NCBI GenBank assembly: GCA_964433345.1
Contig: CAYSQJ010000005.1
Span: 155,585 to 219,584 of the forward strand
Length of the DNA stretch: 64,000 nt
DNA from: an uncultured Bordetella sp.
GTDB taxonomy: Bacteria > Pseudomonadota > Gammaproteobacteria > Burkholderiales > SG8-41
Reading direction: 5' to 3'
The notes below the pieces were generated by a model that was not told where the DNA came from, did no database searches, and was given only the letters and a program-made list of their open reading frames with translations. Shown in pieces: positions 14,564 to 60,257 of the stretch (its first letter is position 1; each line of letters opens with the position of its first letter). The translations under genes were made by a program, and so were the position numbers.

Positions 14564-14595
14564 AAGTAATTGTTTTTAAACATATTTTTAACAAT
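14564..14595 (+). promoter_or_regulatory. AT-rich recurrent element (IHF-site-like), copy 1
   Basis: aagtaattgtttttaaacatatttttaacaat; 15-nt core AAGTAATTGTTTTTA recurs at 6 other sites. Confidence 0.6.
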
Positions 14596-14634
14596 CACCC
14601 GAGTTGGCAACCGCCAACCGCTGGAGTTTCAGAA

Positions 14635-15870
14635 ATGGCCGTATCCCGCAGCAGGAAAAAAACCGTAAGCAAGAAACCGGCAGCATCCAAACCCCGCGCC
14701 GCCGCCAAATCCGTCGCCTTGCGCAAGGCCACGGCAGTCGCGAAGCCGGCGAAGAAATCCGCGAATCCGCTGGGTCTGGAAAAAAAGGCGCCGGACCAGT
14801 TCGATACCTTGCAGGAGATCGCGCTGGCCGCGCATCGCAAGATGCCGGCGCCGGTATGGGATCACCTGATGGGTGGCGCCGATTCCGAAATGACCCTGCG
14901 CCGCAACCGCGCGGGACTGGATGCGCTGGCGCTGCGTCAGCGCGTGCTGGTCGATGTGCGCAACATCGACATGAGCACCACGCTGCTCGGGCAGAAGCTG
15001 GACATTCCCGTGTTCCCGGCGCCGGTCGGCGGGTTTCTGAGCAAGGTGCACCACGAGGGCGGACCGGCGGTCGCCCGTGCCGCGGTATCGCGCGGCACCA
15101 CGGCCTTCATCGCCACGGCGGCGAAACCCAGCCTGGAGGCCGCGCAGGCGGCGGTCGAGCGCAAGCTGGTGTTCCAGCTCTATGTGCGCGGTGACCGCGG
15201 CTGGGTCGAGGGCATGCTCGACCGCGTCAAGGCAGCGGGCTATGCCGCGCTGTGCGTGACGGTGGACCGCAATTTCTACGGCCGCCGTGAACGCGACATC
15301 ATCAGCGGCTTGCCGGTGAAGGAAGGCTTTGGTGACCAGTCATACCAGGCCAGCCTCAACTGGAAGGATCTGCTGTGGATGAAGGAGCGCGTCGGCCTGC
15401 CGCTGATCGCCAAGGGCATCGCCACCGCGGAAGACGCGGAGCTCGCCGTCGAACATGGCGCCGATGTGGTCTATGTCTCCAATCACGGCGGCCGCCAGCT
15501 CGACCATGCCCAGGGCAGCATCGAAGTGCTGGCCGAGGTGGTGAAGGCGGTTGCGGGGCGAGCCGAGGTGCTGGCCGACGGCGGCGTGCAGCGCGGCACC
15601 GACGTGGTCAAGATGCTGTGCCTGGGTGCGCGCGCCGTCGGCGTCGGCAAGCTGCTGGGTCTCGCGTTGTCTGCCAACGGTGAAGCCGGTGTTGCGCGCA
15701 TGCTCGAACTGATGGAAGTGGAGATCCGCCACGCGCTGGGACTGATGGGGGTGACCTCGATCAAACAGCTCGGCCCGGAGTGGCTGCGCGAGGTGCCGGT
15801 GCTGGGCACGCCCGGCGTCGCCAGTGCCTACCCGCTGCTCGAGGCGGCGCTGCGCAACCCGCGCGGCTGA
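14635..15870 (+). CDS. FMN-dependent alpha-hydroxy-acid dehydrogenase/oxidase with Lys/Ala-rich N-terminal tail
   Basis: C-terminal 355 aa match the L-lactate/glycolate oxidase family (SNHGGRQLD, GGVQRGTDVVK); first 53 aa are a basic low-complexity extension. Confidence 0.8.
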   Translation: MAVSRSRKKTVSKKPAASKPRAAAKSVALRKATAVAKPAKKSANPLGLEKKAPDQFDTLQEIALAAHRKMPAPVWDHLMGGADSEMTLRRNRAGLDALALRQRVLVDVRNIDMSTTLLGQKLDIPVFPAPVGGFLSKVHHEGGPAVARAAVSRGTTAFIATAAKPSLEAAQAAVERKLVFQLYVRGDRGWVEGMLDRVKAAGYAALCVTVDRNFYGRRERDIISGLPVKEGFGDQSYQASLNWKDLLWMKERVGLPLIAKGIATAEDAELAVEHGADVVYVSNHGGRQLDHAQGSIEVLAEVVKAVAGRAEVLADGGVQRGTDVVKMLCLGARAVGVGKLLGLALSANGEAGVARMLELMEVEIRHALGLMGVTSIKQLGPEWLREVPVLGTPGVASAYPLLEAALRNPRG

Positions 15871-15895
15871 GTCCGCGCGGGCTCAGGCGATCCGA

Positions 15896-16981
15896 ATGCA
15901 AACAACGCAGACGCAAGGAGCGACGGTGTACAAACTGGGAATACTCGAAGGCGACGACATCGGTCTGGAAGTGGTGCCGGAGTGCGTCAAGGTGATGAAG
16001 GCCGCGGCGGCGAAGGCGGGCGTGCAGATCAAATGGCTGCCGCTGCCGATCGGCAGAAAAGGGCATGAAAGCCATGGCCATACCATGCCGCAGTACACGG
16101 TCGATGCGCTGAAGACAGTTGACGGCTGGGTGCAGGGCCCCATCGGCCACAATGCCTACCCGCGCAATGACAGTACCTGGATCAATCCGCCGCTGCGCAA
16201 GAAGTTCGAACTCTTCGCCAACGTCAAGCCGGTGAAGTCCTACCCGAGCCTGCCGTCGCTGCACAAGGACGTGGACATCGTGTTCCTGCGCGAGACCACC
16301 GAGGGCATGCAGTCGGGCAGCGTGGTCTATGCGGGAACCGGCGAGTTCCAGCCCAACGAGGACATTGCGGTCGGCATGCGCGTGGTCACGCGCAAGGGTG
16401 CCAGCCGCGTCGCGAAAGAAGCCTTCGAAATCGCGCGCACCCGCAAACGCAAAAAAGTCACCGCGCTGCACAAGGAGCCGGTCTACCGCCTGGTCTGCGG
16501 AATGTTCGCGCGCGAGTGCCGTGCGATGGCCGGGAACTACCCGGATGTCGAGTTCGAGGAAGTGCTGATTGACGGTTTCGCGATGAAGGCGGTGATGCGT
16601 CCGCAGCAATACGACGTGGTGGTCACCACCAACCAGTTCGGCGACATCGTCACCGACCTCGGTGCAGGACTCGTCGGCGGTCTGGGCCTCGCGCCGGGCC
16701 TGGTCGTCGGCGAGAAGCAGGCGATGGCGCAGGCCACACACGGCTCGGCGCCGGACATTGCCGGCAAGAATATCGCCAACCCTTACGCGATGATCATGTC
16801 GGGCAAGATGCTGTTCGAGTGGCTGGGCCGCACGCGCAACGATCCGCAAGCGACGGCTGCCGCGAAACTCATCGATGCTGCCGTTGACCGGGTGATTGCC
16901 GAGGCGAAACACCTGACCGGTGATCTGGGCGGCAAGGCCGGCACGACCCAGATGGGGGATGCGATTGCCACGGCTGTGTGA
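15896..16981 (+). CDS. Isocitrate/isopropylmalate/tartrate dehydrogenase-family beta-decarboxylating dehydrogenase
   Basis: Trimmed to MQTTQTQGATVYKLGILEGDDIGLEVVPE; NQFGDIVTDLGAGLVGGLGLAPG, GSAPDIAGKNIANP. Confidence 0.8.
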   Translation: MQTTQTQGATVYKLGILEGDDIGLEVVPECVKVMKAAAAKAGVQIKWLPLPIGRKGHESHGHTMPQYTVDALKTVDGWVQGPIGHNAYPRNDSTWINPPLRKKFELFANVKPVKSYPSLPSLHKDVDIVFLRETTEGMQSGSVVYAGTGEFQPNEDIAVGMRVVTRKGASRVAKEAFEIARTRKRKKVTALHKEPVYRLVCGMFARECRAMAGNYPDVEFEEVLIDGFAMKAVMRPQQYDVVVTTNQFGDIVTDLGAGLVGGLGLAPGLVVGEKQAMAQATHGSAPDIAGKNIANPYAMIMSGKMLFEWLGRTRNDPQATAAAKLIDAAVDRVIAEAKHLTGDLGGKAGTTQMGDAIATAV

Positions 16982-16993
16982 AGCCCGGGGCGC

Positions 16994-17623
16994 ATGTTGC
17001 GAGGAGGTGTTTTGTTAAAAAATGCAATAAAAACAATTACTTGCTTATTATTTCTGCTGCTGGCTGCGCCGCTTGCGGCACAGCAGCCGGCGACGCCGTC
17101 CGGTGGCAAGCCCGCTGCGGCTCCGAAAAAACAAATGCACAAAGTGCAATCCAAAAAGCCTCAGCACAAGCGCAAGGCAGGTCCGCGCCGCGGCAGACTG
17201 GAAAAACTGGCCTGCAAGCTCGGCAACGAAGACCGGCAGGCGCGCATCGCGGTCGAGCTGATCGGCGGCCGCGTCGAAAGCATTGCCTACTACTCCAAGT
17301 GGAAGCCGCGCACCTGCTCGGTGCACATCGTGCGTGATGACGCCTACAGCAAGTGGGAGGATACCGGCCATGTCACCATCGTCACGCTGAACGAGGAGAA
17401 GGGGTCCTTCCTGATCGACCACGGCCGTCGCGCCGTCAAGTTCCTGTTTCGCGAGATCGATCGCGAGCGCTTCTGCGGCATGAGCGGCAAGATCACCGGC
17501 AGCCTGACGGTGACCCGGGGCCGCGATCAATGCGCGCTCGAGGGCGTGATGGACGAGGGTGATGACGACATGCTGCGCCGGCAGCAACCCGCGGAGGCAC
17601 CGCAGCCTGCGCCAATGTCCTGA
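16994..17623 (+). CDS. Hypothetical secreted protein (Lys-rich linker, Cys-containing C-terminal domain)
   Basis: Hydrophobic N-terminus ITCLLFLLLAAPLAA|QQ; no recognisable family; start uncertain (ATG 16994 or TTG 17012 after AGGAGG); its first codons are supplied by the AT-rich element. Confidence 0.45.
   Translation: MLRGGVLLKNAIKTITCLLFLLLAAPLAAQQPATPSGGKPAAAPKKQMHKVQSKKPQHKRKAGPRRGRLEKLACKLGNEDRQARIAVELIGGRVESIAYYSKWKPRTCSVHIVRDDAYSKWEDTGHVTIVTLNEEKGSFLIDHGRRAVKFLFREIDRERFCGMSGKITGSLTVTRGRDQCALEGVMDEGDDDMLRRQQPAEAPQPAPMS
17012..17042 (-). promoter_or_regulatory. AT-rich recurrent element (IHF-site-like), copy 2, inverted
   Basis: ttgttaaaaaatgcaataaaaacaattactt; perfect 15/15 reverse-complement core. 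Confidence 0.6.
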
Positions 17624-17632
17624 CGCGGCTGC

Positions 17633-24972: not shown

Positions 24973-26208
24973 ATGTACGATCTTAAGTTGACGGCGGAGC
25001 AACTCGAGTTCCGCGATGCCATCCGCGATTTTGTCGAGCGCGAAGTCAAACCCGCGGCGACCGACCCCAAGCGGCTCGAGCCTTTCGAGAAGCCGCTGAT
25101 GACGGATTTTCTGGACCAGCTTTCGCAGATGGGACTGCGCGGCCTCGCGCTGCCGGAGGATGCGGGCGGGGCCGGCGCCGACCTGCTCACCCAATGCCTG
25201 CTGCTGGAGGAGATTGCCGCAGGCGATGTCGACCTTGCGATGGTGCTGGGCGAAACCGCACTGCTGGCGCGCGCCGCGCACGGTGCGATGAATGACGCGC
25301 AGCGCGCGCGCTGGCTGCCGAAGTTCGAGGCCGGCGACCGTTTCCACCTCGCGCTGATCGCGCGCGACGAAACGGTGCAACGCGCCTGGAGCTACCACCA
25401 GCCGGCGCCGGAAGATGCCGAAATGATGGGCGAACCCGAACTGCTCGCCTCCCGTGACGGCAAGGGCTGGATCATCAAGGGACTGGCGCCCTTTGTCGCC
25501 AACGCGCCGGTCGCAGGGCTGTTCATCGTGCAGGCGAAGATCGACGGCGAACCGGGCACGGTGACCGTGCTGATCGGGCGGGATGCGAAAGGGCTGGAAA
25601 TCGACGAAGCGCTGCCGGCATTCGGCGACGGCGGCGAGCGCGCGCGCTGGCACCACGGCGCGGTGGCCTCGGTGGCGCTGAACGATTGCAAGGTCGGCGC
25701 CGATGACGTGATTGCCGCCGATGCGGCGCATCGCATGCTGCAGTCCGACCTGGCCGCGCGGCGCATGCTGCAGACCGCGGCGGTCAATGTCGGCGTGGCG
25801 CGCGCGGCCTACGAGGCGGCGGTGGACTACGCAAAAATGCGCTGGCAGGGCGGACGCCACATCATCGAACACCAGTCCATCGGCATGAAACTCGCCGATG
25901 TCGCCATCCAGCTCGAGGCGGCGCGTGCGCTGGTGCTGAAGGCGGCGTGGATCGCCGATCATCCCGATGCCGTCGGCGAGCGCCATGTCAGCGATCTGCC
26001 CTGGCACGTGGTGGCGCGCAGCTTCACTGCGCAGGCACTGCACCGCGCGACGCTGGAATCAGCCGAATGTTTCGGCGCGATGGGCGTGATGCGCGACATG
26101 CCCTTGCAGAAGTATGTGCACGACACCCTGGTGTTGCAGCATTCCGTCGATAACGATCTCGCGGCGCCGCTGGCAGTGGCCGAGGCCGTTGCCGGTCATT
26201 CGCGGTGA
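24973..26208 (+). CDS. Acyl-CoA dehydrogenase-family protein (divergent, first of an adjacent pair)
   Basis: 411 aa; N-terminal LTAEQLEFRDAIRDFVEREV and overall ACAD layout. Confidence 0.7.
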   Translation: MYDLKLTAEQLEFRDAIRDFVEREVKPAATDPKRLEPFEKPLMTDFLDQLSQMGLRGLALPEDAGGAGADLLTQCLLLEEIAAGDVDLAMVLGETALLARAAHGAMNDAQRARWLPKFEAGDRFHLALIARDETVQRAWSYHQPAPEDAEMMGEPELLASRDGKGWIIKGLAPFVANAPVAGLFIVQAKIDGEPGTVTVLIGRDAKGLEIDEALPAFGDGGERARWHHGAVASVALNDCKVGADDVIAADAAHRMLQSDLAARRMLQTAAVNVGVARAAYEAAVDYAKMRWQGGRHIIEHQSIGMKLADVAIQLEAARALVLKAAWIADHPDAVGERHVSDLPWHVVARSFTAQALHRATLESAECFGAMGVMRDMPLQKYVHDTLVLQHSVDNDLAAPLAVAEAVAGHSR

Positions 26209-26214
26209 TATAGC

Positions 26215-26244
26215 AAGTAATTGATTTTATTGATAAAATTTAAA
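26215..26244 (+). promoter_or_regulatory. AT-rich recurrent element (IHF-site-like), copy 3
   Basis: aagtaattgattttattgataaaatttaaa; the reverse complement contains aATCAAttacTTg, a full match to WATCAANNNNTTR. Confidence 0.6.
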
Positions 26245-26252
26245 GGTTGATC

Positions 26253-27478: not shown

Positions 27479-28744
27479 ATGGGGAAAGAGAAAGCCGGGC
27501 CGGTTTCCGTGCCCGATTTCGCCGCGTTGCTGCGATCCGGCGACGTGGTTTCCTGGCCGCAGGGCACCGGTGAACCGGCAGGGCTGACCCGCCGCCTGGT
27601 GGCGCAGCGCCATGCCCTGAAGGATGTGAGCCTGTTCATCGGCATGATGGCCGGAGACACACTGCTTCCCGGTCAGGTCGACGGTTTCCGCATCCACGCG
27701 CTGAACGGCGCCGGCAGCAACCGCAGACTGGCTGCTGCCGGACTCCTCGATATCGTGCCGGTGCCCGTGTCCACCGTGCCGCGTCTGCTGCGTTCGCGGG
27801 AGATCGCGGTGGATGTCGCGCTGATCCGCGTGCGGCCGGCAGCAGAATCCGGCTGGTACACCACAGGCGTTATTGCCGATTACACGCAGGCGCTGGTGTC
27901 CGCCGCGCGCTGCGTGATTGCGGAAATCGATGAGCATCTTCCGCTGACGGCGCAGGACGCGCTGATTGCCGCCGAAGACATCGATGTTCTGGTGCGGGCG
28001 GACGGTGCCGCGGTGGTGATGGACGACGGCGAGCCTTCGGCGATTGAAATGCAGGTGGCGGAACAGGTGGCCGCGCGCATTCCGGACGGTGCGACGCTGC
28101 AGCTGGGCATCGGCGGCCTGCCCGTGGCGGTGTGCCGCGCGCTGCAGGGCCACCGCCATCTGGGCGTGCACAGCGGCGTGGTGCCGGATGCGATCGTCGA
28201 TCTCGTCAGATGCGGTGCCGTTGATCACACGCGCAAGGGTGCCGATGCCGGACTCATGGTCACCGGCGGGCTGTTCGGCGGCGAGCGCCTCTACCGTTTA
28301 GCCGATGCCAATGCCGCGGTCGCGATGCGTTCGGTGGAATACACCCACAATCCCGCGGTGATGGCCGGCATCAACCAATTGCATGCCATCAATTCAGCGA
28401 TCGAGGTTGACCTGTCGGGACAGGCCAATGCCGAGGTGGCCGGCGGCCGCTACATCGGCGCGGTCGGCGGACACGGTGATTTCGTGCGCGGCGCACAGGT
28501 TTCAAGCGGCGGCCGCTCGATCATCGCGCTGCCGTCGACGACGCCCGACGGCAGACATTCACGCATCGTCGCCTCGCTCGCGGGGCGTCCAGTGACCACG
28601 GTGCGCGCCGACATGGATTGGGTGGTGACGGAATACGGCCTTGCCGAATTGAGGGGCTGTTCGCTGGCGCAACGCGCGCAGCGCCTGCTTGCCATCGCAC
28701 ATCCGGCATTCCGTGAACGACTGGCCGCGGACATGAAACAATAG
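27479..28744 (+). CDS. Acetyl-CoA hydrolase/transferase-family CoA-transferase (4-hydroxybutyrate CoA-transferase-like)
   Basis: 768-aa ORF trimmed to MGKEKAGPVSVPDFAALLRSGDVVSW; ...INSAIEVDLSGQANAE..., GGHGDFVRGA, VTEYGLAELRG. Confidence 0.75.
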   Translation: MGKEKAGPVSVPDFAALLRSGDVVSWPQGTGEPAGLTRRLVAQRHALKDVSLFIGMMAGDTLLPGQVDGFRIHALNGAGSNRRLAAAGLLDIVPVPVSTVPRLLRSREIAVDVALIRVRPAAESGWYTTGVIADYTQALVSAARCVIAEIDEHLPLTAQDALIAAEDIDVLVRADGAAVVMDDGEPSAIEMQVAEQVAARIPDGATLQLGIGGLPVAVCRALQGHRHLGVHSGVVPDAIVDLVRCGAVDHTRKGADAGLMVTGGLFGGERLYRLADANAAVAMRSVEYTHNPAVMAGINQLHAINSAIEVDLSGQANAEVAGGRYIGAVGGHGDFVRGAQVSSGGRSIIALPSTTPDGRHSRIVASLAGRPVTTVRADMDWVVTEYGLAELRGCSLAQRAQRLLAIAHPAFRERLAADMKQ

Positions 28745-28788
28745 CGGGATGCAGCAGGCGGCATGCAGTGGCAGTGGAAAATTTTAAT

Positions 28789-28803
28789 AAGTAATTGATT
28801 TTA
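28789..28803 (+). promoter_or_regulatory. AT-rich recurrent element core, copy 4
   Basis: aagtaattgatttta, 11 nt upstream of ATG 28815; the reverse complement aATCAAttacTTa matches WATCAANNNNTTR. Confidence 0.55.
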
Positions 28804-28814
28804 AAGGAAATAGT

Positions 28815-34209: not shown

Positions 34210-34219
34210 GATTTATATA

Positions 34220-41038: not shown

Positions 41039-41431
41039 CTAACTCCCTCTCCCCGTAGTCTTACGGGGAGAGGGTTGGGGTGAGGGGCTGCCAAGAGTCT
41101 CAAAAATAACCTGCATCACACTGTCCGTTTTCAACAACACATCATCATCCCAAAACCGCAACACCCGATACCCCGACTGTTCCAGAAACGCCGTGCGCTT
41201 CGCATCGTAGTCCTGTTGTTGCTGATGCTGGCCGCCATCGAGTTCGATGACCAGTTTTTCATTTATGCAAATAAAATCAACAACATACGGACCTACCGGG
41301 TGCTGGCGCCTGAATTTGGCACCGTTCAGACTCTTGCTGCGCAGTTGCTGCCAGATTTTGCGTTCGGCATCGGTTTCGGATTTTCTGAGTTTGCGGGCGA
41401 AGGTTTTGCCGCGCTGGGTATTGCCCTTCAA
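41039..41431 (-). CDS. DUF559 (Vsr/restriction-endonuclease-like) domain protein; both ends abut REP units
   Basis: ARKLRKSETDAERKIWQQLRSK...FRRQHPVGPYVVDFICINEKLVIELDGGQH...RVLRFWDDDV; TTG start; last 16 codons (SPSPQPSPRKTTGRGS) are REP sequence. Confidence 0.7.
   Translation of the reverse strand: MKGNTQRGKTFARKLRKSETDAERKIWQQLRSKSLNGAKFRRQHPVGPYVVDFICINEKLVIELDGGQHQQQQDYDAKRTAFLEQSGYRVLRFWDDDVLLKTDSVMQVIFETLGSPSPQPSPRKTTGRGS
41045..41087. repeat. REP unit (inverted orientation) forming the 3' end of the DUF559 ORF
   Basis: ccctctccccgtagtcttacggggagagggttggggtgagggg. Confidence 0.85.
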
Positions 41432-44750: not shown

Positions 44751-44788
44751 GCGATCCGTCACTGGTCTGGAGAGGTGATGACTTGGTG

Positions 44789-44816
44789 CTTAAAAATGTA
44801 ATAAAAACAATTACTT
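44789..44816 (-). promoter_or_regulatory. AT-rich recurrent element (IHF-site-like), copy 5, inverted
   Basis: cttaaaaatgtaataaaaacaattactt; perfect 15/15 core. Confidence 0.6.
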
Positions 44817-44890
44817 ATAATTAATCCACTATCCCCGGGCGGTTGCTGATCTTGTTTTACTCAATACATTGAGTAAAAATACTCAACGTA

Positions 44891-46093
44891 ATGAGTAAAT
44901 CGACAATCCCTTATCGTCGTTCCCAGACCGATCTGCTGGCCAGCCGCCTCGCCGAGCCGCGGCGTTTCCTGCAGGTTGTGGCCGGCCCGCGCCAGGTGGG
45001 CAAGTCCACCTTGGTCGAGCAGGTGACCGGTGCACTTGATCTGCCAGTGCGTTACGTCAGCGCCGACGAGCCGACATTGCGCGGGGGCGACTGGATCGCG
45101 CAGCAGTGGGAGGCGTTGCGGCTGGAAGCGGGCAAGAGTGCTGCGGTGCTGGTGCTCGATGAAATCCAGAAAATTCCCGACTGGTCCGAAACCGTCAAAC
45201 GGCTGTGGGACGAGGACACGCGCGCCAAACGCCCGCTGAAGGTGGTGCTGCTTGGTTCGGCGCCGCTGCTGCTGGCGCAGGGACTGACCGAGAGCCTCGC
45301 CGGGCGCTTCGAACTGCTGCCTGTGCCGCACTGGTCGCTGGCGGAGATGCACGAGGCCTTTGGCTGGTCGCTGGAGGACTATCTGTATTTCGGTGGTTAT
45401 CCCGGCGCGGCGCCGCTCGTTTCGGAACCGGCACGCTGGACGCGTTATGTTGCGGACAGCCTGATCGAGACTTCGATCGCGCGCGACGTGCTGCTGCTCT
45501 CGCGCGTGGACAAGCCGGCATTGTTGCGGCGGCTGTTCGAACTCGGCTGCCGGTATTCCGGGCAGGTGCTGTCCTATACCAAGATGGTGGGACAGTTGCA
45601 GGATGCCGGCAACACCACCACGCTGGCGCATTACCTGGAGCTGCTGGCCGGCGCGGGCATGCTCTGCGGGCTGCAGAAGTACGCCGGTGATGCAGCGCGT
45701 AGCCGGGGTTCCAGTCCCAAGCTGCAGGTGCTCAACACGGCGCTGATGAGCGCGCTTTCAGGCCTGACTCCGGAGGAAGCGCGCGCCGACCGCGAGTTTC
45801 GCGGCCGGCTGGTCGAGTCCGCGGTCGGGGCGCATCTGGCGAACGCGGCGGCCGGCGGCGTGTGCAAGCTGTATTACTGGCGCGACAAGAATCAGGAAGT
45901 GGATTTTGTGGTCGAGGCGGGGCGCCGGCTGATCGCCGTCGAAGTCAAAAGCGGGCGGGCGCCGCAGGCGCATCCGGGTTCGGCGGCATTCGCCAAGGCA
46001 TTCAAGGTGCATCGTTCGCTGCTGGTGGGGGGCGACGGTATTTCTGTGGAGGATTTTCTGGGAAAGCCGGTATCGGAGTGGATTGCGGCTTGA
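44891..46093 (+). CDS. AAA_14/DUF4143-family ATPase with C-terminal PD-(D/E)xK-like region
   Basis: Walker A GPRQVGKST, Walker B VLVLDEIQ, C-terminal EVDFVVE...AVEVKSG. Confidence 0.75.
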   Translation: MSKSTIPYRRSQTDLLASRLAEPRRFLQVVAGPRQVGKSTLVEQVTGALDLPVRYVSADEPTLRGGDWIAQQWEALRLEAGKSAAVLVLDEIQKIPDWSETVKRLWDEDTRAKRPLKVVLLGSAPLLLAQGLTESLAGRFELLPVPHWSLAEMHEAFGWSLEDYLYFGGYPGAAPLVSEPARWTRYVADSLIETSIARDVLLLSRVDKPALLRRLFELGCRYSGQVLSYTKMVGQLQDAGNTTTLAHYLELLAGAGMLCGLQKYAGDAARSRGSSPKLQVLNTALMSALSGLTPEEARADREFRGRLVESAVGAHLANAAAGGVCKLYYWRDKNQEVDFVVEAGRRLIAVEVKSGRAPQAHPGSAAFAKAFKVHRSLLVGGDGISVEDFLGKPVSEWIAA

Positions 46094-46218: not shown

Positions 46219-46259
46219 ATAAAACCAAGGGGAGGGCTTAAATGCCTGGTTTATTCCTC

Positions 46260-47441
46260 ATGTCAAAACTTCCGCTATCCAACATCACCGTCATCGCCCT
46301 AGAACAAGCCGTCGCCGCGCCGTTCTGTTCCCGTCAGCTCGCCGACCTCGGCGCGCGGGTGATCAAGATCGAGCGGCCGAAGGTCGGTGACTTCGCGCGC
46401 GACTATGACCAGACCGTCAAAGGCCAGTCGGCCTATTTCGTCTGGCTGAACCGCTCCAAGGAAAGCCTGACGCTGGACGTGAAACATCCCGAGGCGAAGA
46501 ACATCCTCGCCAAGCTGATCGCCGAAGCCGATGTGTTCATCCAGAACCTCGCGCCGGGTGCGGCGCAGCGCTTGGGATTGGGCGCTGCCGATTTGCGCGC
46601 CAAGCATCCGAAGCTGATCGTCTGCGATGTGTCGGGTTACGGCACGACGGGACCGTATTCCAAAAAGAAGGCCTACGACCTGCTGGTGCAGGGCGAGGCG
46701 GGGGTACTGTCATTGACCGGCACGCCGGAGTCGCCGGCGAAAGTCGGCATTTCGATCACCGACATCGGCACCGGGCTGCATGCTTATGCCGCGATCCTCG
46801 CCGCGCTCTACACGCGCGAACGCACGGGCGAGGGCGCGCATATCGATCTGACCATGTTCGAGACCATGGCCGAGTGGATGGGCCATCCGCTGTATTACAC
46901 GCATTACTCGGGCAAGGCGCCGCGGCGCAGCGGGCCGGATCACGCGACCATCGTACCCTACGGGCGTTTCCGCACGAAGGATGGCGATGTGCTGTTCGGC
47001 ATTCAGAACGAACGCGAGTGGGCGAACTTCTGCGACAAGGTGCTGGGCCGGCCGGAGTTGGCGAAAGACCCGCGTTACGACAACAACACCAAGCGCACCG
47101 CGGCGCGTGCTGAAGTCGTCGCGCTGATCGAGAACACTTTTGCGCCGTGGACGAGTGATGAAGTGGTGGCGAAGCTGGATGCCGCTGACATCGCCAATTC
47201 ACGGCTCAATACACCGGACCAGGTCTGGGATCATCCGCAGTTGCAGGCACGGCAACGCTGGCGCGAGGTGGAGACGCCGGCAGGGACTATTCCGACGCTG
47301 TTGCCGGCGGCGACGTTTGAAGGGTTTGAGGCGCGGATGGATTCTGTGCCGGCGGTGGGGCAACAGACCGAGTTGATTCTTGGGGAACTGGGGTATTCGG
47401 TGGCGCAGATTGCCGAATTGAAAACGGCCGGGGCGATTTGA
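46260..47441 (+). CDS. Family-III (CaiB/BaiF) CoA-transferase
   Basis: Trimmed to MSKLPLSNITVIALEQAVAAPFCSRQLADLGARVIKIERP. Confidence 0.8.
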   Translation: MSKLPLSNITVIALEQAVAAPFCSRQLADLGARVIKIERPKVGDFARDYDQTVKGQSAYFVWLNRSKESLTLDVKHPEAKNILAKLIAEADVFIQNLAPGAAQRLGLGAADLRAKHPKLIVCDVSGYGTTGPYSKKKAYDLLVQGEAGVLSLTGTPESPAKVGISITDIGTGLHAYAAILAALYTRERTGEGAHIDLTMFETMAEWMGHPLYYTHYSGKAPRRSGPDHATIVPYGRFRTKDGDVLFGIQNEREWANFCDKVLGRPELAKDPRYDNNTKRTAARAEVVALIENTFAPWTSDEVVAKLDAADIANSRLNTPDQVWDHPQLQARQRWREVETPAGTIPTLLPAATFEGFEARMDSVPAVGQQTELILGELGYSVAQIAELKTAGAI

Positions 47442-47506: not shown

Positions 47507-47591
47507 CGTCATTCCGGCGGAAGCCGGAATCCAGCGTTTTTGCATTTACTGCACTGGATTCCGGATCGCGCTACGCGCGTCCGGAATGACG
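47507..47591. repeat. Third REP type: inverted pair of GTCATTCCGG..CCGGAATCCAG units
   Basis: cgtcattccggcggaagccggaatccag (47507-47534) and ctggattccgg..ccggaatgacg (47554-47591). Confidence 0.8.
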
Positions 47592-47622
47592 GGATATGGC
47601 TCGCAGATGCGGAATATTATGT

Positions 47623-47652
47623 AAGTAATTGTTTTTATTGACTATTTTTAAC
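47623..47652 (+). promoter_or_regulatory. AT-rich recurrent element (IHF-site-like), copy 6
   Basis: aagtaattgtttttattgactatttttaac; overlaps the last 5 codons and stop of the minus-strand gene. Confidence 0.6.
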
Positions 47653-48870
47653 GCCCGCTCCCTGCCAGTTGTAAGCCCGCAGATCCAGCAGCAATTCCGG
47701 CTTCATCTCCTTCGGCGAGTTCACGCCGACCAGCGCCATGTCGGTCATCAGTTCGCTGCGCATCAGGTTGATGACGTGTTGTGCGCCGTGTTCGGCGCCA
47801 ATGGATATCGCATAAAGAAAGGGCCGGCCGATGAAGACGAAGTCGGCGCCCAGCGCCAGTGCTTTCAGTACATCGGTGCCGCGGCGGATGCCGCTGTCCA
47901 TCATCACCGCCATGTTGCCGGCATTGGCCTTCACACCCGGCAGCATGCGCAGCGGGCTTACTGCGCCGTCGAGCTGGCGGCCGCCGTGGTTGGAGACCAT
48001 CACGCCGTCGACGCCGGCGTCGCGCGCGCGCGCGGCGTCCTGCGGGTCGAGGATGCCTTTCAGCACCAGCTTGCCTTTCCACAGCTGGCGCATCAGCTCC
48101 ACATGTTTCCACGACAGCCGGTCGCGGCGGCCAGCCTGGCGGTTGAGCGCCGAGATCATCGGCACGCGCGGGCCCATGTTCTCGAAATGCGGCATGCCGT
48201 GGCTCAGCGTGTGTCTGAGCATTGCCAGGCACCAGCGCGGGCGGGTGGCCATGTCCCAGGCGAGGCGCAGGCTGGGGCGCAGCGGCGTGCTGAAGCCGGT
48301 GCGCACATTGTTCTCGCGGTTTGCGAGCACCTGGACGTCGACGGTCAGCACCAGCGTGTCGTAGCCGGCCTTTTCGACGCGGTTGATCAGCGCCTTGATC
48401 ACGTCGTCCTCGCCGGGCAGGTAGGCCTGGAACCACGCGGTCTTGCCTTCCTGCTTGACGCGTTCCAGCGAAGTGAGCGCGGCGCCGCTGACCACCATCG
48501 GGATGTTGTTGCGCGCTGCGGCACGGGCCAGCGCGACGTCGCCGTCGGCGCAGGCCATCCCGGTGCCGCCCATCGGCGGGATGCCGAAGGGCAGGTCGTA
48601 CTGGGTGCCCATCAGCGTGGTCTTCAAGCCGCGGTCGCCGGTGTCGATGAGGGTTTTGGGGATGAACTGCAGTTCGTCCCATACCGCGCGGTTGTCGCGC
48701 AGCGAGGCGTTGGTCTCGGCGCCGCCGTTGATATAGCCGAAGATCGGGCGCGGAATGCCGCGGCGGGCGGCGTCCTCGAAGTCGTCGAGGGCGAGCATCT
48801 GCTGCAGGATGCGCGGGGCGGAGGAGGACAGGGCCGCGGTGGCGGCGTTTTCGTAGCTGACGCTGGTCAT
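47635..48870 (-). CDS. FMN-dependent alpha-hydroxy-acid dehydrogenase (L-lactate/mandelate dehydrogenase-like)
   Basis: 671-aa ORF trimmed to MTSVSYENAATAAL...; SNHGGRQLD, DSGIRRGTDVLKALALGA. Confidence 0.8.
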   Translation of the reverse strand: MTSVSYENAATAALSSSAPRILQQMLALDDFEDAARRGIPRPIFGYINGGAETNASLRDNRAVWDELQFIPKTLIDTGDRGLKTTLMGTQYDLPFGIPPMGGTGMACADGDVALARAAARNNIPMVVSGAALTSLERVKQEGKTAWFQAYLPGEDDVIKALINRVEKAGYDTLVLTVDVQVLANRENNVRTGFSTPLRPSLRLAWDMATRPRWCLAMLRHTLSHGMPHFENMGPRVPMISALNRQAGRRDRLSWKHVELMRQLWKGKLVLKGILDPQDAARARDAGVDGVMVSNHGGRQLDGAVSPLRMLPGVKANAGNMAVMMDSGIRRGTDVLKALALGADFVFIGRPFLYAISIGAEHGAQHVINLMRSELMTDMALVGVNSPKEMKPELLLDLRAYNWQGAGVKNSQ

Positions 48871-49044
48871 GGTGTCGGGTGGGGTGATTGCAGTTGAGGT
48901 CCGATGATACCGGTTGCGGGACGGTTGGCGCAGCATGCGGCGGAGGTCCGTTCCGGAACCGGGGAACGGTGCTAGCATAGCCGCAGGCCGCTCTACAAAT
49001 AAATGAAATGGCCGGCCCATCAAAAAACCGGGAGGAGAACTGCA

Positions 49045-50079
49045 ATGCGCTCGAATACCCTTGATACGCAGGTTTTTCGCGGCTTCGGCCGCGTGTTCAA
49101 ACGCCGCGCGACGGCCGCGCTGCAGATGTTCGGCATGGGGCTGCTGGCCCTCGGGCTGGTGGCCCCCTCGCTGGCGCAGTCGCAGTTTCCGAACCGTCCG
49201 CTGCGCATGGTGCTGCCCTTCCCGCCGGGCGGTTCGACCGACATTCTCGGGCGTATCGTTGCGGCCAGCCTCAGCGAGAAACTGGGCCAGCCGGTCATTG
49301 CCGACAACCGGCCCGGACTGGGTGGTTATTACGGGCTGGACATGGCTTCGAAGTCCCAGCCTGACGGTCACACCTTCACCATCGCCTCGCTGGTGTATGC
49401 GAGCGGCCCCGTGACCTATCCGGACATGAAATTCAATCCGGCCAAAGACCTGACTTCGATCGGGCAGATCTCCGAGGCGCCGAACTTCCTGGTGGTCAAC
49501 CTCGGCGTACCGGCGAAATCGATGAAGGAACTGGTGGATTACGTCCGCGCCAATCCGAAGAAACTGCACTACTCGACCAGCGGCGTCGGATCGACGCTGC
49601 ACCTGTCGGCGGCGATGATGAACAGCATCACCAAGATGGACATGGTGCATGTGCCGTACAAGGGCGGCGGCGGCCCGGCGATGACTGCAGTGCTGGGCGG
49701 CGAGGTGCAGGTGATCGTGCTCGGACCGGCGTCAATCCAGCATTTCCGCGCAGGCAAGGCGCGCGCGCTGGCGGTGTTGAGCGAGGAACGGGTGTCGGTC
49801 ACGCCGGATGTGCCGACAGCCAAGGAACAGGGCTTCAATGTCGTGGTGGCGGGCTGGCACGGCCTGCTCGCGCCAGCAGGCACGCCGCGTCCGATCATCC
49901 AGCGCCTGAACAAGCTCTGGGTGGACAGCGCGAACAGCCCGGACGTGAAGGCGCGGCTGGAGAAGCTCGGGTTTTTCCCGCGGCCCGGCACGCCGGAGCA
50001 GTTCACGGCTTACCTGAAGAACGAAACCCTGCGCTGGCAGCGGCTGATCAAGGAAATCAATCTCCAACCCGCCCGATGA
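49045..50079 (+). CDS. Bug/TctC-family receptor
   Basis: GGAGGAG RBS; PLRMVLPFPPGGSTDILGR, VPYKGGGGPA. Confidence 0.8.
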   Translation: MRSNTLDTQVFRGFGRVFKRRATAALQMFGMGLLALGLVAPSLAQSQFPNRPLRMVLPFPPGGSTDILGRIVAASLSEKLGQPVIADNRPGLGGYYGLDMASKSQPDGHTFTIASLVYASGPVTYPDMKFNPAKDLTSIGQISEAPNFLVVNLGVPAKSMKELVDYVRANPKKLHYSTSGVGSTLHLSAAMMNSITKMDMVHVPYKGGGGPAMTAVLGGEVQVIVLGPASIQHFRAGKARALAVLSEERVSVTPDVPTAKEQGFNVVVAGWHGLLAPAGTPRPIIQRLNKLWVDSANSPDVKARLEKLGFFPRPGTPEQFTAYLKNETLRWQRLIKEINLQPAR

Positions 50080-57223: not shown

Positions 57224-57266
57224 GGATTAGCAGAGTGTCTTTAATCGACCTCGAAGGGAAGTGGGT

Positions 57267-57710: not shown

Positions 57711-57776
57711 ATCTGGAATTTTGTCTATCAAACTAGGGGCAATTCATCCTTCCACGAGCTTGGCACCTTTGATTTG

Positions 57777-58118: not shown

Positions 58119-58120
58119 GG

Positions 58121-60211
58121 TCAAGGCACCATCGGTAGCGGTGACAAGGGGCGCGGTCCGGGATAGTAGTTGCCCGGTAACGTAAATGGCGACCGCCCTA
58201 GATCCCTTAAGAAGTCGCGTGGCAACATCGAGTCACCGACATCGATCCCAAATTGCCTCAGGCACTCCTGCCACGGAGTACCACAATTATTACTCGTCGC
58301 GCTGTATTGGGGATCCGACGACAGAAGGCATTTCCGCAACTCCGCCTCTTGCTGCGGTGTAAGCGGAATTCGCACTCCGATCCCATTGCGAACCTGCTGC
58401 TGCCGCTGAATGTAGTCATCAGCGCGAGGATATGTACGATCCCAGCCCCGAGGTCCGAAGGAGAAGTTTTCCCCGTTGATGTTCCCCGAGACATGCCCGA
58501 AGCTACTCTCAAGCTGGCCCAAGTTCCCAGGAACGATTCCGCCCGACCAGGAAAGAGCGCCCCAGAATATGATCTCCGTCATGAGTCCGAGTGGATCTAC
58601 CCTGCTCAATGGATTGCTCCCGACATACGCATAGGTATTAATCCCTCCCGCCAGTCCAATCGGATCAGATTGCACATACCGTCCGGTGAGCGGGTCATAG
58701 TCCCTGAAGTAGTTGTAATGCGTGCCGAGTTCTGTGTCGAAGTACTGCCCCGGCAATCTGAGGTTGCAGGTAAAGTTCCCCGCCCCCGAGGGGTTCTCGT
58801 TCGGCGCATTGTTCCCATAGGGATCATCGTTCGCCCAACTCCACACCGCCTGTCCCGTGTCACTGGTAATGAGCCGCGGCGTGTTCAGGTGATCGGTGTG
58901 CACGAAGTACATCTTCGGCACGGTGGTGAGCGCGATCAGCTGGATCGCATCCGCAATGACGAAGCCGTTGGCCTGGTCGGTGAGGGTGATGGTGCTGCTG
59001 CCGTTGAGGTTAAACGTCCCCAGCAGGTTGAAGGCACCGCCATTGGTCTGCTGGTTGACGGGTACTTGAGTGGTCCCCTGGGCATGGTTCACCGTGTAAG
59101 TCGCATTGCTCGCCCGATTCGGGTTTGCCGTCCACTTCGCATACACCTCGTATTGCCCCGCTGCGACGTTCGGCGTCCAGGTCGCGGTGTTGAACTCCGG
59201 CGCCGAGGCCTCGATCAGCCGGATCGCATCCGCAATCACGAAGCCATTGGCCTGATCCGTCAGACTCACCTTGTGGCCCGATCCGGGCGCCATGCTGTAA
59301 GTGCCGAGCAAGACCCACTGCCCGTTGTTCTGCACCTGATCCACCGTCACCGGGGTGTCACCCCCGGCATGGGTCACCGTGTACTGGGCATTGCTCGCCC
59401 GGTTCGGATGCGCCGTCCAGCGGGCATAGACCTTGTAGCTGCCCGCACTGGGGATCGTCGGCGTCCAGGTGGCCGTATTGGGGGCCGCATTCTCCGGGGT
59501 GACCTTGATCGCATCGGCAATGACGTAGCCGTCACCCTGGTCGACCAGCACCACCGAGTGGCCGCTGCCGGCGTTGAGACTGAAGGTGCCCAGCAACTGC
59601 CAAGTCCCGCCATTGGCCTCCTGGTTCACCGTCACCGCTGTCGCGCCCCCGGCATGGTTCACCGTATAGGTGGCCTGGGTGCTGCGGTTGGGGTGGGCGG
59701 TCCAGCGGGCATAGACCTTGTAGCTGCCGGTGGTGGGGATGGTGGGGGTCCAGGTGAAGCTGTTGGCCCCGGCCCCGGCCGGGTGATGCTGGTAGTTGCT
59801 GCCGTAGTAGCCGCCGACACTGGTGGAAGTGGCCCAGGTGCCGGAGGCCGTGCCCGCGGTGTTGTCCACCACGATGGCAGAGGGTTCCTCGCCATTGGCG
59901 GCGTGGACCTGGTAGTTGCTGCCCAGATACCCGCCCACCGAGGTCGAAGTGGGCCAGGTGCCAGTGACACTGAAGCCCGAGTCGGTGTTGTCCACCACGA
60001 TGGCGCCGGGCGGGCTGCCGTTGGCGGGGTGGGCGAGGTAGTTCGTGCCCTGGTAACCGGGCACATTGGTGGAGGCCGACCAGCTGCCCAGCGTGCTGAA
60101 GCCGGCGTCGGTGTTGTCGATCACCACCGGGGTGGCGGCCTGGGTGGCCACGGCAGCGCAGAGGAGGAATGCAGCGAGTATTCCTGCGGTACTGTGGTTA
60201 TGGGAGGGCAT
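58121..60211 (-). CDS. Secreted lectin-repeat / RHS-core / C-terminal toxin (CT2) protein, downstream copy
   Basis: Signal peptide ...AAFLLCAAVATQA|ATP; repeat modules; core MYFVHTDHLNTPRL...YDPLTGRYVQSDPIGL...SRVDPLGL; unique 153-aa C-terminus; no obvious SD. Confidence 0.8.
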   Translation of the reverse strand: MPSHNHSTAGILAAFLLCAAVATQAATPVVIDNTDAGFSTLGSWSASTNVPGYQGTNYLAHPANGSPPGAIVVDNTDSGFSVTGTWPTSTSVGGYLGSNYQVHAANGEEPSAIVVDNTAGTASGTWATSTSVGGYYGSNYQHHPAGAGANSFTWTPTIPTTGSYKVYARWTAHPNRSTQATYTVNHAGGATAVTVNQEANGGTWQLLGTFSLNAGSGHSVVLVDQGDGYVIADAIKVTPENAAPNTATWTPTIPSAGSYKVYARWTAHPNRASNAQYTVTHAGGDTPVTVDQVQNNGQWVLLGTYSMAPGSGHKVSLTDQANGFVIADAIRLIEASAPEFNTATWTPNVAAGQYEVYAKWTANPNRASNATYTVNHAQGTTQVPVNQQTNGGAFNLLGTFNLNGSSTITLTDQANGFVIADAIQLIALTTVPKMYFVHTDHLNTPRLITSDTGQAVWSWANDDPYGNNAPNENPSGAGNFTCNLRLPGQYFDTELGTHYNYFRDYDPLTGRYVQSDPIGLAGGINTYAYVGSNPLSRVDPLGLMTEIIFWGALSWSGGIVPGNLGQLESSFGHVSGNINGENFSFGPRGWDRTYPRADDYIQRQQQVRNGIGVRIPLTPQQEAELRKCLLSSDPQYSATSNNCGTPWQECLRQFGIDVGDSMLPRDFLRDLGRSPFTLPGNYYPGPRPLSPLPMVP

Positions 60212-60227
60212 CAAGAGATATTGTTTT

Positions 60228-60257
60228 AAGTATTTGTTTTTATTGATTATTTTTATC
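60228..60257 (+). promoter_or_regulatory. AT-rich recurrent element (IHF-site-like), copy 7
   Basis: aagtatttgtttttattgattatttttatc (14/15 core), 17 nt upstream of the minus-strand start at 60211. Confidence 0.55.

Follow-up and report, generated by a model that had tools for sequence, protein, structure and literature searches.

Copies of an AT-rich element in the 64-kb window

The window, that is, the whole 64-kb stretch of DNA analyzed here, belongs to the 3.49-Mb genome (63% GC; assembly 99.8% complete) of an uncultured freshwater bacterium. Among genes for acyl-CoA dehydrogenases, FMN-dependent dehydrogenases, a CoA-transferase, an ATPase, and a toxin, it carries repeated copies of an AT-rich element. 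Searching the window for the core AAGTAATTGTTTTTA with up to two mismatches gave exactly seven matches, at 14564 (+), 17042 (-), 26215 (+), 28789 (+), 44816 (-), 47623 (+), and 60228 (+). None of 100 dinucleotide shuffles of the window gave a match (chance expectation, 0), confirming the seven copies that an earlier sequence-only reading had located. Its counts of the core variants were also correct, with four exact copies of AAGTAATTGTTTTTA, two of AAGTAATTGATTTTA, and one of AAGTATTTGTTTTTA. A weight matrix was built on the genome-wide copies and then used to score those of the window. The seven copies scored 47 to 61 bits, and the matrix recovered a weak copy, previously suspected at about 34198 to 34228, as well as a marginal match.

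14554 to 14595, plus strand: copy 1 (60.0 bits), between the stop of a PEP-mutase/ICL-family gene (13652-14548) and an FMN-dependent dehydrogenase gene (14635-15870)
17011 to 17052, minus strand: copy 2 (51.6 bits), within the 5' end of a gene
26205 to 26246, plus strand: copy 3 (47.9 bits), occupying the 44-nt spacer of two acyl-CoA dehydrogenase genes
28779 to 28820, plus strand: copy 4 (47.3 bits), with only its left half intact
34192 to 34233, plus strand: weak copy (31.8 bits), across the 10-nt gap of two minus-strand genes
41255 to 41296, minus strand: marginal match (20.7 bits), within a DUF559 ORF
44785 to 44826, minus strand: copy 5 (52.9 bits), between an acyl-CoA dehydrogenase gene (43212-44378) and an AAA_14/DUF4143 ATPase gene (44891-46093)
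47613 to 47654, plus strand: copy 6 (57.4 bits), between the convergent genes for a CoA-transferase (46242-47441, plus strand) and an FMN-dependent dehydrogenase (47635-49650, minus strand)
60218 to 60259, plus strand: copy 7 (61.4 bits), with the core AAGTATTTGTTTTTA, the majority core genome-wide

The gene contexts and coding overlaps described in the sequence-only reading were borne out. Three copies lie directly upstream of the plus-strand genes at 14635, 26253, and 28815. Copy 1 is followed by a conserved GTTGGC..GCCAAC hairpin; ~20 species of the genus share this copy at the orthologous position. At its right end, copy 3 enters the AAAGG ribosome-binding site that serves the gene at 26253; in copy 4, the ribosome-binding site and start codon (ATG) of the acyl-CoA dehydrogenase gene at 28815 take the place of the right half. 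Copy 2 overlaps the first codons of an ORF in which a GAGGAGG ribosome-binding site precedes a TTG start at ~17015 and the sequence M-L-K-N-A-I-K-T-I-T-C-L-L-F..., corresponding to a signal-peptide n-region; this coding arrangement is retained in ~20 related species. Copy 6 contains the stop and the last five codons (V-K-N-S-Q-stop) of the minus-strand FMN-dependent dehydrogenase gene, and copy 7 lies between the start of a Golvesin/RHS toxin gene (60214) and the stop of a 169-aa ORF (60263), both on the minus strand. The weak copy spans the stop of an enoyl-CoA hydratase gene (34220) and the start of a CoA-ligase beta-like gene (34209), thereby overlapping both coding ends. The match at 41255 to 41296 could be a decayed copy or have arisen by chance; at a threshold of ≥20 bits, local-shuffle controls gave 5 to 9 matches genome-wide. 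In the comparison with relatives that the sequence-only reading had proposed, copy 3 is present in ~22 species and missing in 6, in which the spacer is GC normal and of similar length.

A genome-wide family with the features of IHF sites

The estimate of at least seven copies was true but far too low, since the family comprises ~358 copies in this genome (about one per 9.7 kb) and extends to several genera. The predicted enrichment outside the window was found on a large scale, with 365 raw matches genome-wide at ≥25 bits versus 0 to 2 in local-shuffle controls. The copies account for 91% of the AT-rich islands of the genome. The de novo logo reads YAA-N4-TTG(A/T)T-W, 9 nt, and a T-tract. Unbiased motif discovery in 390 AT-rich islands returned the same arrangement on the other strand, namely, an A-tract, 9 to 10 nt, W-A-(T/A)-C-A-A, N4, and T-T-R, with an information dip at N4. 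Base frequencies in this Gibbs logo were.94 (W = A),.94 (A),.50/.48 (T/A),.94 (C),.96 (A), and.91 (A), followed after the weak N4 by.91 (T),.96 (T), and.87/.10 (R = A/G). The conserved flanks reported earlier, including a second T-tract ~8 nt past the core, proved to be real: the T-tract at +21 to +25 carries 1.4 to 1.9 bits although it lay outside the search pattern, and it corresponds to A-tract positions 8 to 12 of the Gibbs logo. Conservation is limited to positions -10 to +31 and the median AT-island is 38 nt long, defining a sharply bounded element of ~38 to 40 nt. The element contains -10-box-like hexamers (TATAAG). Its information content is 50 bits (still 27 bits when the background is set to 90% AT), whereas 14.3 bits would suffice to specify 358 sites, and exact 28-mers exceed expectation (10 observed versus 0.1 expected). 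This excess of information and of near-perfect copies goes beyond the normal demand of one binding protein and is a hint of additional constraints or of a directional drive.

The IHF core WATCAANNNNTTR, which reads YAANNNNTTGATW on the other strand, is present in the element. As anticipated from the window, copies 3 and 4 match it perfectly on the opposite strand and the other window copies have a single T-to-A mismatch; 65% of the copies of the genome have A in place of T in WATCAA. In the H' site of phage lambda, the T-tract occupies positions 15 to 20 after the first T of TTG. It is found at positions 16 to 20 in the element, within 1 nt of H', so that all of the IHF determinants (YAA, TTGAT(W), and a 5- to 6-nt T-tract 9 to 10 nt further) are in register. 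Seen from the WATCAA side, the dA+dT tract lies ~8 to 9 bp away in helical register, and the extent of the element matches the ~35-bp IHF footprint. Like the H'-type sites of lambda attP (A/T-tract plus WATCAANNNNTTR), the element is asymmetric, spans ~35 to 40 bp, has three determinants in register, and is least constrained at N4. It differs from them in being present as ~358 near-identical copies per genome rather than as isolated degenerate sites, in the predominance of TTGTT over TTGAT, and in a stronger conservation next to the core.

Comparison of 34 orthologous pairs (G000 versus G003) revealed identities of.85 to.97 for TAA,.62 to.79 for N4,.82 for the first T and 1.0 for the final TG of TTG,.91 to 1.0 for TTTTTAWW,.85 to.88 for the first three bases of the T-tract,.71 to.74 for its last two, and ~.5 for the flanks. 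At the sequence level, this constraint profile is IHF-like. In the 34 copies located mid-gene, N4 relaxes most and position -1 is Y (T.71, C.29), giving YAANNNNTTGATW. The reading of the element as a putative IHF site, put forward on the basis of the window, thus passed every sequence test applied: the de novo logo, the lambda H' register, the ortholog constraint profile, and the relaxation of N4 inside genes. The genome encodes both IHF subunits (ihfA at C6:204748-205014 and ihfB at C17:19938-20207), the sole two DNABII genes found; neither HU nor H-NS family genes were found in the 99.8%-complete assembly.

Placement, origin, and lineage distribution

Most copies are at gene boundaries and 86% are intergenic. 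Orientation is independent of the flanking genes, with 95, 105, 54, and 51 copies over the four gap types (54 in convergent and 51 in divergent gaps, the co-directional gaps being used as well), in proportion to gap abundance, and it is linked neither to GC skew (p = 0.36) nor to the orientation of the neighboring copy. These observations support the earlier suggestion of an architectural element rather than a simple promoter. A sigma-70 promoter and an intrinsic terminator were both rejected on the basis of the random orientation, the use of all gap types, and the lack of a hairpin and of a -35 partner. In co-directional gaps, the element often stops a few nucleotides 5' of the ribosome-binding site (e.g., 26215 and 28789), and in-gene copies sit in few reading frames, at tolerant residues. 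No association with recombination, replication, or sigma-54 promoters was apparent.

Copies are more evenly spaced than expected for random intergenic placement, with a coefficient of variation (CV) of 0.68 versus 0.94 to 0.98 (standard deviation, 0.05). Distances of <2 kb were rarer (4.8% versus 15 to 17%), as were those of >25 kb (1.5% versus 6%). When 400 kb of a second species was sampled, close pairs were again deficient but the low CV was not replicated (pooled CV, 1.06), a single 62-kb gap being responsible. Low-GC islands of foreign appearance make up the two longest gaps without a copy.

For each of the 33 G000 copies with syntenic flanks, an ortholog exists in a species whose nucleotide identity is 86%. 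Position sharing with G003 amounted to 33/33 and 29 to 32 of 34, and idiosyncratic weak variants are kept between species. At empty orthologous sites, the spacer length is unchanged. Within glmS, a copy has converted AILRQIDSV to KIFNKINGL, in a gapless alignment to orthologues without the element. Hairpin energies of the flanks equaled those of random 40-mers, and flank-to-flank duplex energies equaled those of permuted pairs. The search for terminal inverted repeats and target duplications gave longest direct or inverted flank words equal to permuted controls, which leaves room for a very short duplication (TA). Thus, the copies are nonmobile; point substitutions created them in situ, and purifying selection maintains them. 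The sequence-only reading had offered a mobile element as the other meaning of the variable orientation, and this part of it is not supported. A low-copy REP-like palindrome adjoins only 16 copies.

Large expansions are restricted to two genera of the host family and one genus of another family. Hundreds of copies are present in g1, g19, and g8, and none in g18 and g20 of the same family; within the genus, copy numbers span a 30-fold range. The g1 and g8 versions differ at IHF-neutral positions. The element 18-mer is also found as a single copy in many further families of the order (33 matches versus 2 for the reversed control) and of the class, as expected for a recognizer common to all. Sister genera devoid of the expansion have nearly identical IHF alpha and beta subunits, indicating that IHF alone does not explain hundreds of copies only in g1, g19, and g8. 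Loss of HU does not track the element either, since g18 lacks both and g8 has both.

A candidate chromosomal array of IHF sites and its alternatives

We consider it reasonably likely that the family is an array of high-affinity IHF sites organizing the chromosome, both IHF as the binder and the architectural function being our inference. Each copy, reading YAA-N4-TTG(A/T)T-W, 9 nt, and TTTTT on the strand of the earlier reading, within ~38 to 40 bp of AT-rich DNA, the size of an IHF footprint, would be a high-affinity lambda-H'-type site for the IHF heterodimer. Bound IHF would impose a sharp U-turn on the DNA at ~350 fixed places, about one per 9 to 10 kb, and the array, operating at the level of DNA, would form a hard-wired architectural scaffold of fixed bends. 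The bends may be barriers to supercoil diffusion. Occupancy by IHF would also close the only easily melted AT-rich spots of a 63% GC chromosome, and individual copies may influence the adjoining promoter or ribosome-binding site. Points that count against this reading are the A in WATCAA of most copies, the nearly identical IHF of genera devoid of the expansion, the surplus of information and of near-perfect copies, and the low CV that was not replicated in the second species. The repeat is probably a built-in chromosome-folding scaffold, of a kind not described in the literature searched.

The closest known families differ from the element in several respects. The RIP/RIB (BIME-1) sequences of E. 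coli are IHF sites scattered between REP palindromes, for the most part at the 3' ends of transcription units, and BIMEs have been proposed to be topological insulators (reviewed in PMC6907758). Both families are intergenic, dispersed, lineage specific, and often abut stop codons, and both are plausible barriers to supercoil diffusion. Unlike RIP/RIB, the element has no flanking REP hairpins and no 3'-end preference, is several times more abundant, occurs in some genes, and originates from in-place substitution rather than from REP-type spread. Membership in the REP/BIME-1 family was rejected, since GC-rich palindromic REP units do not flank the copies and hairpin energy is at the control level. 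The Correia elements (CREE) of Neisseria are ~100- to 150-bp MITEs, many of which contain an IHF site (PMC2649163, PMC2229807). They likewise form hundreds of IHF-site repeats between genes in a betaproteobacterial lineage, but they are mobile, with terminal inverted repeats and a TA target duplication, none of which was found here.

The uptake sequences of Pasteurellaceae (USS) and Neisseriaceae (DUS) resemble the element in a core with two phased T-tracts, the use of both orientations, writing into genes by substitution, absence from foreign-looking DNA, and lineage dialects (PMC3458573, PMC2817400, PMC3630211). The element could accordingly be a DNA uptake signal, enriched in place by biased uptake and recombination owing to a competence surface receptor that prefers easily kinked sequences, which we regard as unlikely. 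The core and two T-tracts about one helical turn apart reproduce the H. influenzae USS architecture (PMC3458573), both orientations are equally used, and the copies originate by substitution rather than insertion. In-gene copies favor few frames at tolerant residues, as in glmS and as reported for uptake sequences, and the foreign-looking character of the longest copy-free gaps parallels the finding that "genes lacking homologs also lacked uptake sequences" (PMC2817400). The lineage-specific expansion with dialect-like variants, the surplus of information, and the pile-up of perfect copies fit the same scheme, and ComEC and a ComP_DUS-family pilin are encoded. However, the three-part match to IHF in exact register would be a coincidence (about 1 in 1000 from composition, by our estimate), and the density of one per 9.7 kb is ten times below the ~1 per kb of known uptake sequences. 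The element, in an uncultured host, is also AT-rich, mostly intergenic, and a fit to the IHF consensus. Sister genera that lack the element encode the tested competence genes equally, single copies of this sequence are enriched in many nonexpanded families, and weak variants are kept between species rather than driven to consensus. It is rather unlikely that the element is a third independent family of uptake signals, after those of Pasteurellaceae and Neisseriaceae, that evolved in uncultured freshwater Burkholderiales, whose optimum coincides with an IHF-type kinkable sequence and whose ~350 copies, including those in essential genes such as glmS, were written by molecular drive rather than by selection for binding.

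A site for another DNA-binding or nucleoid protein confined to the expanded lineages, with a partial or secondary resemblance to IHF sites, appears quite unlikely. The contrast of g1, g19, and g8 with g18 and g20 demands a lineage-specific cause, IHF itself is the same in expanded and nonexpanded groups, and the core-adjacent TTTTTAWW and position 3 of N4 are conserved beyond the E. coli IHF consensus. Against this, no candidate was identified, the H-NS family is not encoded, HU loss does not track the element, and the single copies in many families point to a widely shared recognizer. A role in transcription or on RNA, as a promoter, terminator, AU-rich translational enhancer, or RNase target, is very improbable: the TATAAG hexamers resemble -10 boxes and an unstructured AU-rich leader could aid translation where the element abuts a ribosome-binding site, but gene-relative orientation is random, convergent and divergent gaps are used about equally, 34 copies are mid-gene, and there is no conserved -35 partner, hairpin, flank complementarity, or Rfam family match. 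The element is hardly a miniature mobile element or insertion-sequence terminus: a dispersed near-identical repeat with over-represented perfect copies and variable copy number would suit one, but nothing is conserved past ~40 nt, flank repeats and pairing do not exceed controls, testable positions are common to both species, copy-less spacers keep their length, the glmS alignment is gapless, and the plasmid collection held nothing relevant.

IHF sites are known singly, serving regulation or recombination, or as passengers of mobile repeats (RIP/BIME-1 and Correia). What differs here is a stand-alone IHF-type site multiplied to hundreds with few close pairs, originating by in-place substitution, even in glmS, and kept in position genus-wide. 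The copies represent nearly all of the AT-rich DNA of a GC-rich chromosome that appears to lack HU and H-NS. If IHF does not bind, the leading alternative, a new uptake-signal system, would be at least as interesting, and the family is in either case a ready-made, testable set of sites. If IHF binds, the family would be a natural experiment in sequence-encoded nucleoid architecture, in which the genome sequence itself would show where bends and possible domain barriers lie, allowing comparison across species.

Copies in the window and in the genome

A search of the window for the 15-nt core, allowing up to two mismatches, returned seven copies at the coordinates and on the strands proposed by the sequence-only reading, versus none in 100 dinucleotide shuffles. 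Aligned on the core, these copies have ~40 nt of AT-rich sequence in common and no likeness outside it. They score 47 to 61 bits with a weight matrix derived from the genome-wide copies, which also recovered, at 34192-34233 (31.8 bits), a weak copy that had been placed at about 34198-34228, and gave a marginal match at 41255-41296 (20.7 bits). The gene contexts proposed for copies 1, 2, 3, 4, and 6 were correct. The copies, by their first window position, are as follows.

Copy 1, 14554, plus strand: just upstream of an FMN-dependent dehydrogenase gene
Copy 2, 17011, minus strand: overlaps the first codons of an ORF starting near 17015
Copy 3, 26205, plus strand: just upstream of an acyl-CoA dehydrogenase gene
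Copy 4, 28779, plus strand: just upstream of an acyl-CoA dehydrogenase gene
Copy 5, 44785, minus strand
Copy 6, 47613, plus strand: contains the stop and last five codons of a convergent minus-strand gene
Copy 7, 60218, plus strand

Other sequences lie close to these copies. Downstream of copy 1 and ahead of the FMN-dependent dehydrogenase gene is a hairpin (GAGTTGGCAACCGCCAACC, window 14596-14634) that is kept in ~20 species with compensatory stem changes (GTTGGC..GCCAAC and GGTTGGTG..CACCAACC; orthologous loci L001-L027) and is probably a 5'-UTR structure. The acetyl-CoA hydrolase/transferase gene (window 27500-28744) located between the two acyl-CoA dehydrogenase genes occurs only in the source genome and in one other of 40 members of the genus; in at least four members lacking it, the matches to the dehydrogenase flanks share one contig, separated by ~120 to 250 nt. 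Copy 4 marks the downstream end of the insertion. The segment at 44827-44890, just upstream of an AAA_14/DUF4143 ATPase gene, is AT rich and carries repeated operator-like palindromes (TTACTCAATACATTGAGTAA ... TACTCAACGTAATGAGTAA) that are distinct from the element. Directly left of copy 6 is a REP-like GC-rich palindrome (..ATTCCGGATCGCGCTACGCGCGTCCGGAATGACGG, window 47545-47600). Its arm TCCGGAATGAC is low copy in the genome, with 152 matches at up to one mismatch, mostly coding noise, 16 of which have an element within 120 nt.

In the whole assembly (3.49 Mb, 63.3% GC, 29 contigs; the window is positions 155585-219584 of contig C5), the majority core is AAGTATTTGTTTTTA, with 51 exact occurrences and 199 within two mismatches. 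Measured from the core start, conservation is confined to about -10 to +31, with background levels on either side. At a threshold of ≥25 bits, the first-pass matrix gave 365 raw matches, or 358 once merged, versus 0 to 2 in genomes shuffled in 40-nt blocks, which preserves AT-rich islands. The first-pass matrix was used, as iteration shifted it towards an FNR-like TTGAT-N4-ATCAA and AT-rich DNA in general. Copies of the element account for 279 of the 307 genome stretches (91%) containing at least 26 A/T in 30 nt, and the other AT-rich stretches belong mostly to a single atypical region on contig C6. Among the most frequent genomic 12-mers, the sole nontrivial entries are fragments of the element, indicating that the genome contains no other high-copy dispersed repeat. 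Six 15-mers of the element were not found in the literature searched, and a plasmid collection returned nothing relevant, its only match being a marginal one of 33 nt at a single location.

Placement, spacing, and descent of the copies

Genes were called with a simple codon-usage caller, which is approximate, and distances to start codons were left unused as unreliable. On these approximate calls, 308 copies are intergenic, 16 lie across a gene edge, and 34 are mid-gene. When regions were oriented by the element, the intergenic copies fell into 95 "++", 105 "--", 54 convergent, and 51 divergent gaps, close to the genome proportions of those gap types. Copy orientation was independent of local GC skew (p = 0.36) and unrelated between neighbouring copies (155 in the same orientation and 179 in the opposite one). 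The copies had no polarity relative to replication or to their neighbours, and close pairs showed no orientation bias. The conservation table contained a conserved -35/-10 pair in no arrangement, which disposes of a sigma-70 reading of the hexamers. The earlier suggestion of an architectural element rather than a simple promoter is supported by the independence from gene orientation and by the use of gap types in proportion to their frequency. Copies are packed tight against coding ends: an opposite-strand stop codon falls inside the element in about one-third of cases, and the TAA of the element at -1 to +1 frequently acts as a stop codon. The longest-ORF start rule produces an artefactual sharp peak of "start codons" immediately past the T-tract.

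The mean distance between copies is 9.3 kb. The coefficient of variation (CV) of the spacing is 0.68, versus 0.94 to 0.98 (SD, 0.05) for random placement in intergenic gaps; distances of <2 kb make up 4.8% (15 to 17% for random placement) and those of >25 kb make up 1.5% (~6%), irrespective of the minimum gap length set in the random model. The mid-gene copies proved not to be fillers of unusually long gaps. The longest copy-free stretches of the source genome, C6:148517-201341 (53 kb) and C3:296858-342956 (46 kb), both outside the window, look foreign: their codon usage is atypical and their GC content is 55 to 58%, versus 63% genome-wide. Horizontal acquisition is the probable origin of both islands. 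In a second species, a 400-kb sample reproduced the deficit of close pairs (4.7% at <2 kb) and gave a pooled CV of 1.06, raised by one 62-kb gap. The robust claim is therefore limited to a scarcity, in native DNA, of both close pairs and long gaps; strict periodicity is not claimed.

The relatives compared were lake and groundwater metagenome-assembled genomes labelled merely Burkholderiales or Betaproteobacteria. Copy 1 was found at the orthologous position in ~20 species, and copy 2 is retained in ~20 species as coding sequence for a signal-peptide n-region. Copy 3 is present in ~22 species and is replaced in six by a GC-normal spacer of about equal length (31 to 57 nt, versus 43 to 65 nt), which is not the trace expected of an insertion. 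In a comparison with G003, a species with 86% nucleotide identity over the aligned blocks, all 33 source-genome copies with syntenic flanks had an orthologous copy; reciprocally, 29 of 34 G003 copies were clearly conserved and 3 weakly so. The two genomes have idiosyncratic weak variants in common, and some copies are 12 to 13 mismatches off the consensus yet only 1 to 2 bases from their orthologue.

Mid-gene copies use the three stop-free reading frames, encoding K-N-I-N-K-N-K-Y-L and I-K-I-S-I-K-T on one strand and (H)K-Y-L-F-L-L-I-F, commonly a signal-peptide core, on the other. In glmS of species from genus g1 (that of the source genome) and genus g19 of the same family, AAAATATTCAATAAAATCAATGGGTTR encodes ...KIFNKINGL...; the collinear segment reads AILRQIDSV, PVFQGARSV, or KVFAAIDSI, in GC-rich codons, in genera g18 and g20 of that family and g8 of another. 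These segments lack the element, indicating that the copy was made by about a dozen substitutions within an essential gene; judged from this comparison, it is older than the g1/g19 split. In three species, at loci orthologous to window ~16981-17015 (L008, L020, and L022), an insert of 1.3 to 1.45 kb between an isopropylmalate-dehydrogenase-like gene and the copy-2 signal-peptide gene carries a ~1.0-kb gene, the product of which resembles a periplasmic solute-binding protein equipped with a signal peptide of its own.

Correspondence with the IHF site and candidate proteins

To guard against circularity, a Gibbs sampler was run on 390 AT-rich islands picked by composition only. On the strand opposite that of the sequence-only reading, the logo consists of AAAAW, 9 to 10 nt, A (.94), A (.94), T/A (.50/.48), C (.94), A (.96), A (.91), four weak positions, and then T (.91), T (.96), and A (.87)/G (.10). 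In sequence terms, this is WATCAANNNNTTR plus an upstream A-tract, with low information at N4 and a purine at R. On the other strand, counting from the initial T of TTG, the T-tract of the element occupies positions 16 to 20; that of H', the IHF site of lambda attP, occupies positions 15 to 20. Among 34 orthologous pairs of copies from two species, identity was.85 to.97 in TAA,.62 to.79 in N4, and ~.5 in the flanks. Within TTG, it was 1.0 for the final TG and.82 for the first T; TTTTTAWW reached.91 to 1.0, and the T-tract.85 to.88 in its first three bases and.71 to.74 in its last two. The 34 mid-gene copies are likewise most relaxed at N4, and their position -1 (T,.71; C,.29) corresponds to the Y of YAANNNNTTGATW. 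These two independent measures of constraint agree with the logo. Binding by IHF is the best-supported mechanism and a fairly probable one: all three parts of the site are matched exactly, the constraint is distributed as in an IHF site, and other lineages carry single copies.

The source genome (99.8% complete) has just two genes of the DNABII (HU/IHF) family, encoding IHF alpha (ihfA, C6:204748-205014) and IHF beta (ihfB, C17:19938-20207). Neither a Pfam search nor tblastn with HupB of E. coli as the query detected an HU gene in this genome, and no H-NS family protein was found in it. Good genomes of g1, g18, and g19 have two DNABII genes only, versus three to five in 15 of 16 other families sampled. 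Loss of HU as the cause of the expansion fails on wider sampling, since g18 has neither HU nor the element and g8 has an HU-like gene together with ~390 copies. The HU-like gene of g8 (locus L063; G106:C61, 1501-1770) encodes an unusual arm, GHNPRTHMPIKI, in place of GRNP.TG.EI.I, and a copy of the element (L063 1447-1490) lies immediately upstream of it. A lineage-specific change in IHF was rejected, as no substitution in the DNA-binding arms tracks the element; both subunits are near-identical between genera with and without the expansion. An H-NS-type silencer was also discarded (PF00816 protein in none of five genomes), and competence genes did not discriminate, ComEC and a ComP_DUS-type pilin being present in all five genera tested.

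Phyletic distribution and competing explanations

The distribution was searched with a strict 18-mer pattern, TAAGTWWTTGWTTTTAWW, the order-level search covering 301 good genomes in all.

Matches to the strict 18-mer pattern
Genus g1: 5-165 per genome; present in 24/24 genomes sampled
Genus g19, same family: 134 and 280 per genome
Genus g8, another family: 6-19 per genome; 389 within 2 mismatches (control, 11)
Genera g18 and g20, family of g1: zero; also zero AT islands in 50 kb read
Other families of the order: 1-2 in ~25 genomes; total 33 versus 2 for the reversed control
Class-wide sample, 400 genomes: mostly single matches, ~6x control; 14 identical in one genome

The consensus in g8 is slightly different, TAAC/GTATTTGATT(T/A)TATT. 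Single copies in other families are intergenic, and several are full length; their neighbour genes are unrelated (rimM, rpsO, glyA, mgsA, and binding-protein genes), with no common gene context. The genome with 14 identical copies of TAAGTTATTGATTTTAAT (G464, from another family of the class; e.g., C23:13134-13151) has a congener with one, and its copies could be a small independent expansion or a motif embedded in some other repeat.

Recognition by a widely shared protein such as IHF would explain the single copies found elsewhere but not an expansion in only three genera. The main rival is that the element is a DNA uptake signal spread by uptake-biased recombination, and many properties are common to the element and uptake signal sequences (PMC3458573, PMC2817400). 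The information content of 50 bits, versus 14.3 bits needed, and the ten perfect 28-mers, versus 0.1 expected, are awkward for a plain binding-site model, as is the lineage-specific expansion; a directional process such as uptake-biased recombination could account for all three. We nevertheless consider this explanation unlikely, and binding by another, lineage-specific protein slightly more so. A role at the level of RNA or transcription is very improbable: the hairpin energies of the flanks match those of random 40-mers, left-right flank pairing equals that of permuted flanks, which dismisses flank stems and terminator hairpins, and no Rfam family matched anywhere in the window. Least credible of all is the mobile element envisaged by the sequence-only reading, given that direct and inverted words common to both flanks do not exceed permuted controls, leaving no sign of target-site duplications or terminal inverted repeats, and that positions are conserved across species.

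Binding by IHF thus ranks first among these explanations. The closest described elements, RIP/BIME-1 and Correia elements, bear their IHF site within a hairpin or inverted-repeat element. A putative architectural role is suggested by the orientation independence of the copies, by their spacing, and by the apparent lack of both HU and H-NS; it would resemble the insulator function proposed for BIMEs (PMC6907758).
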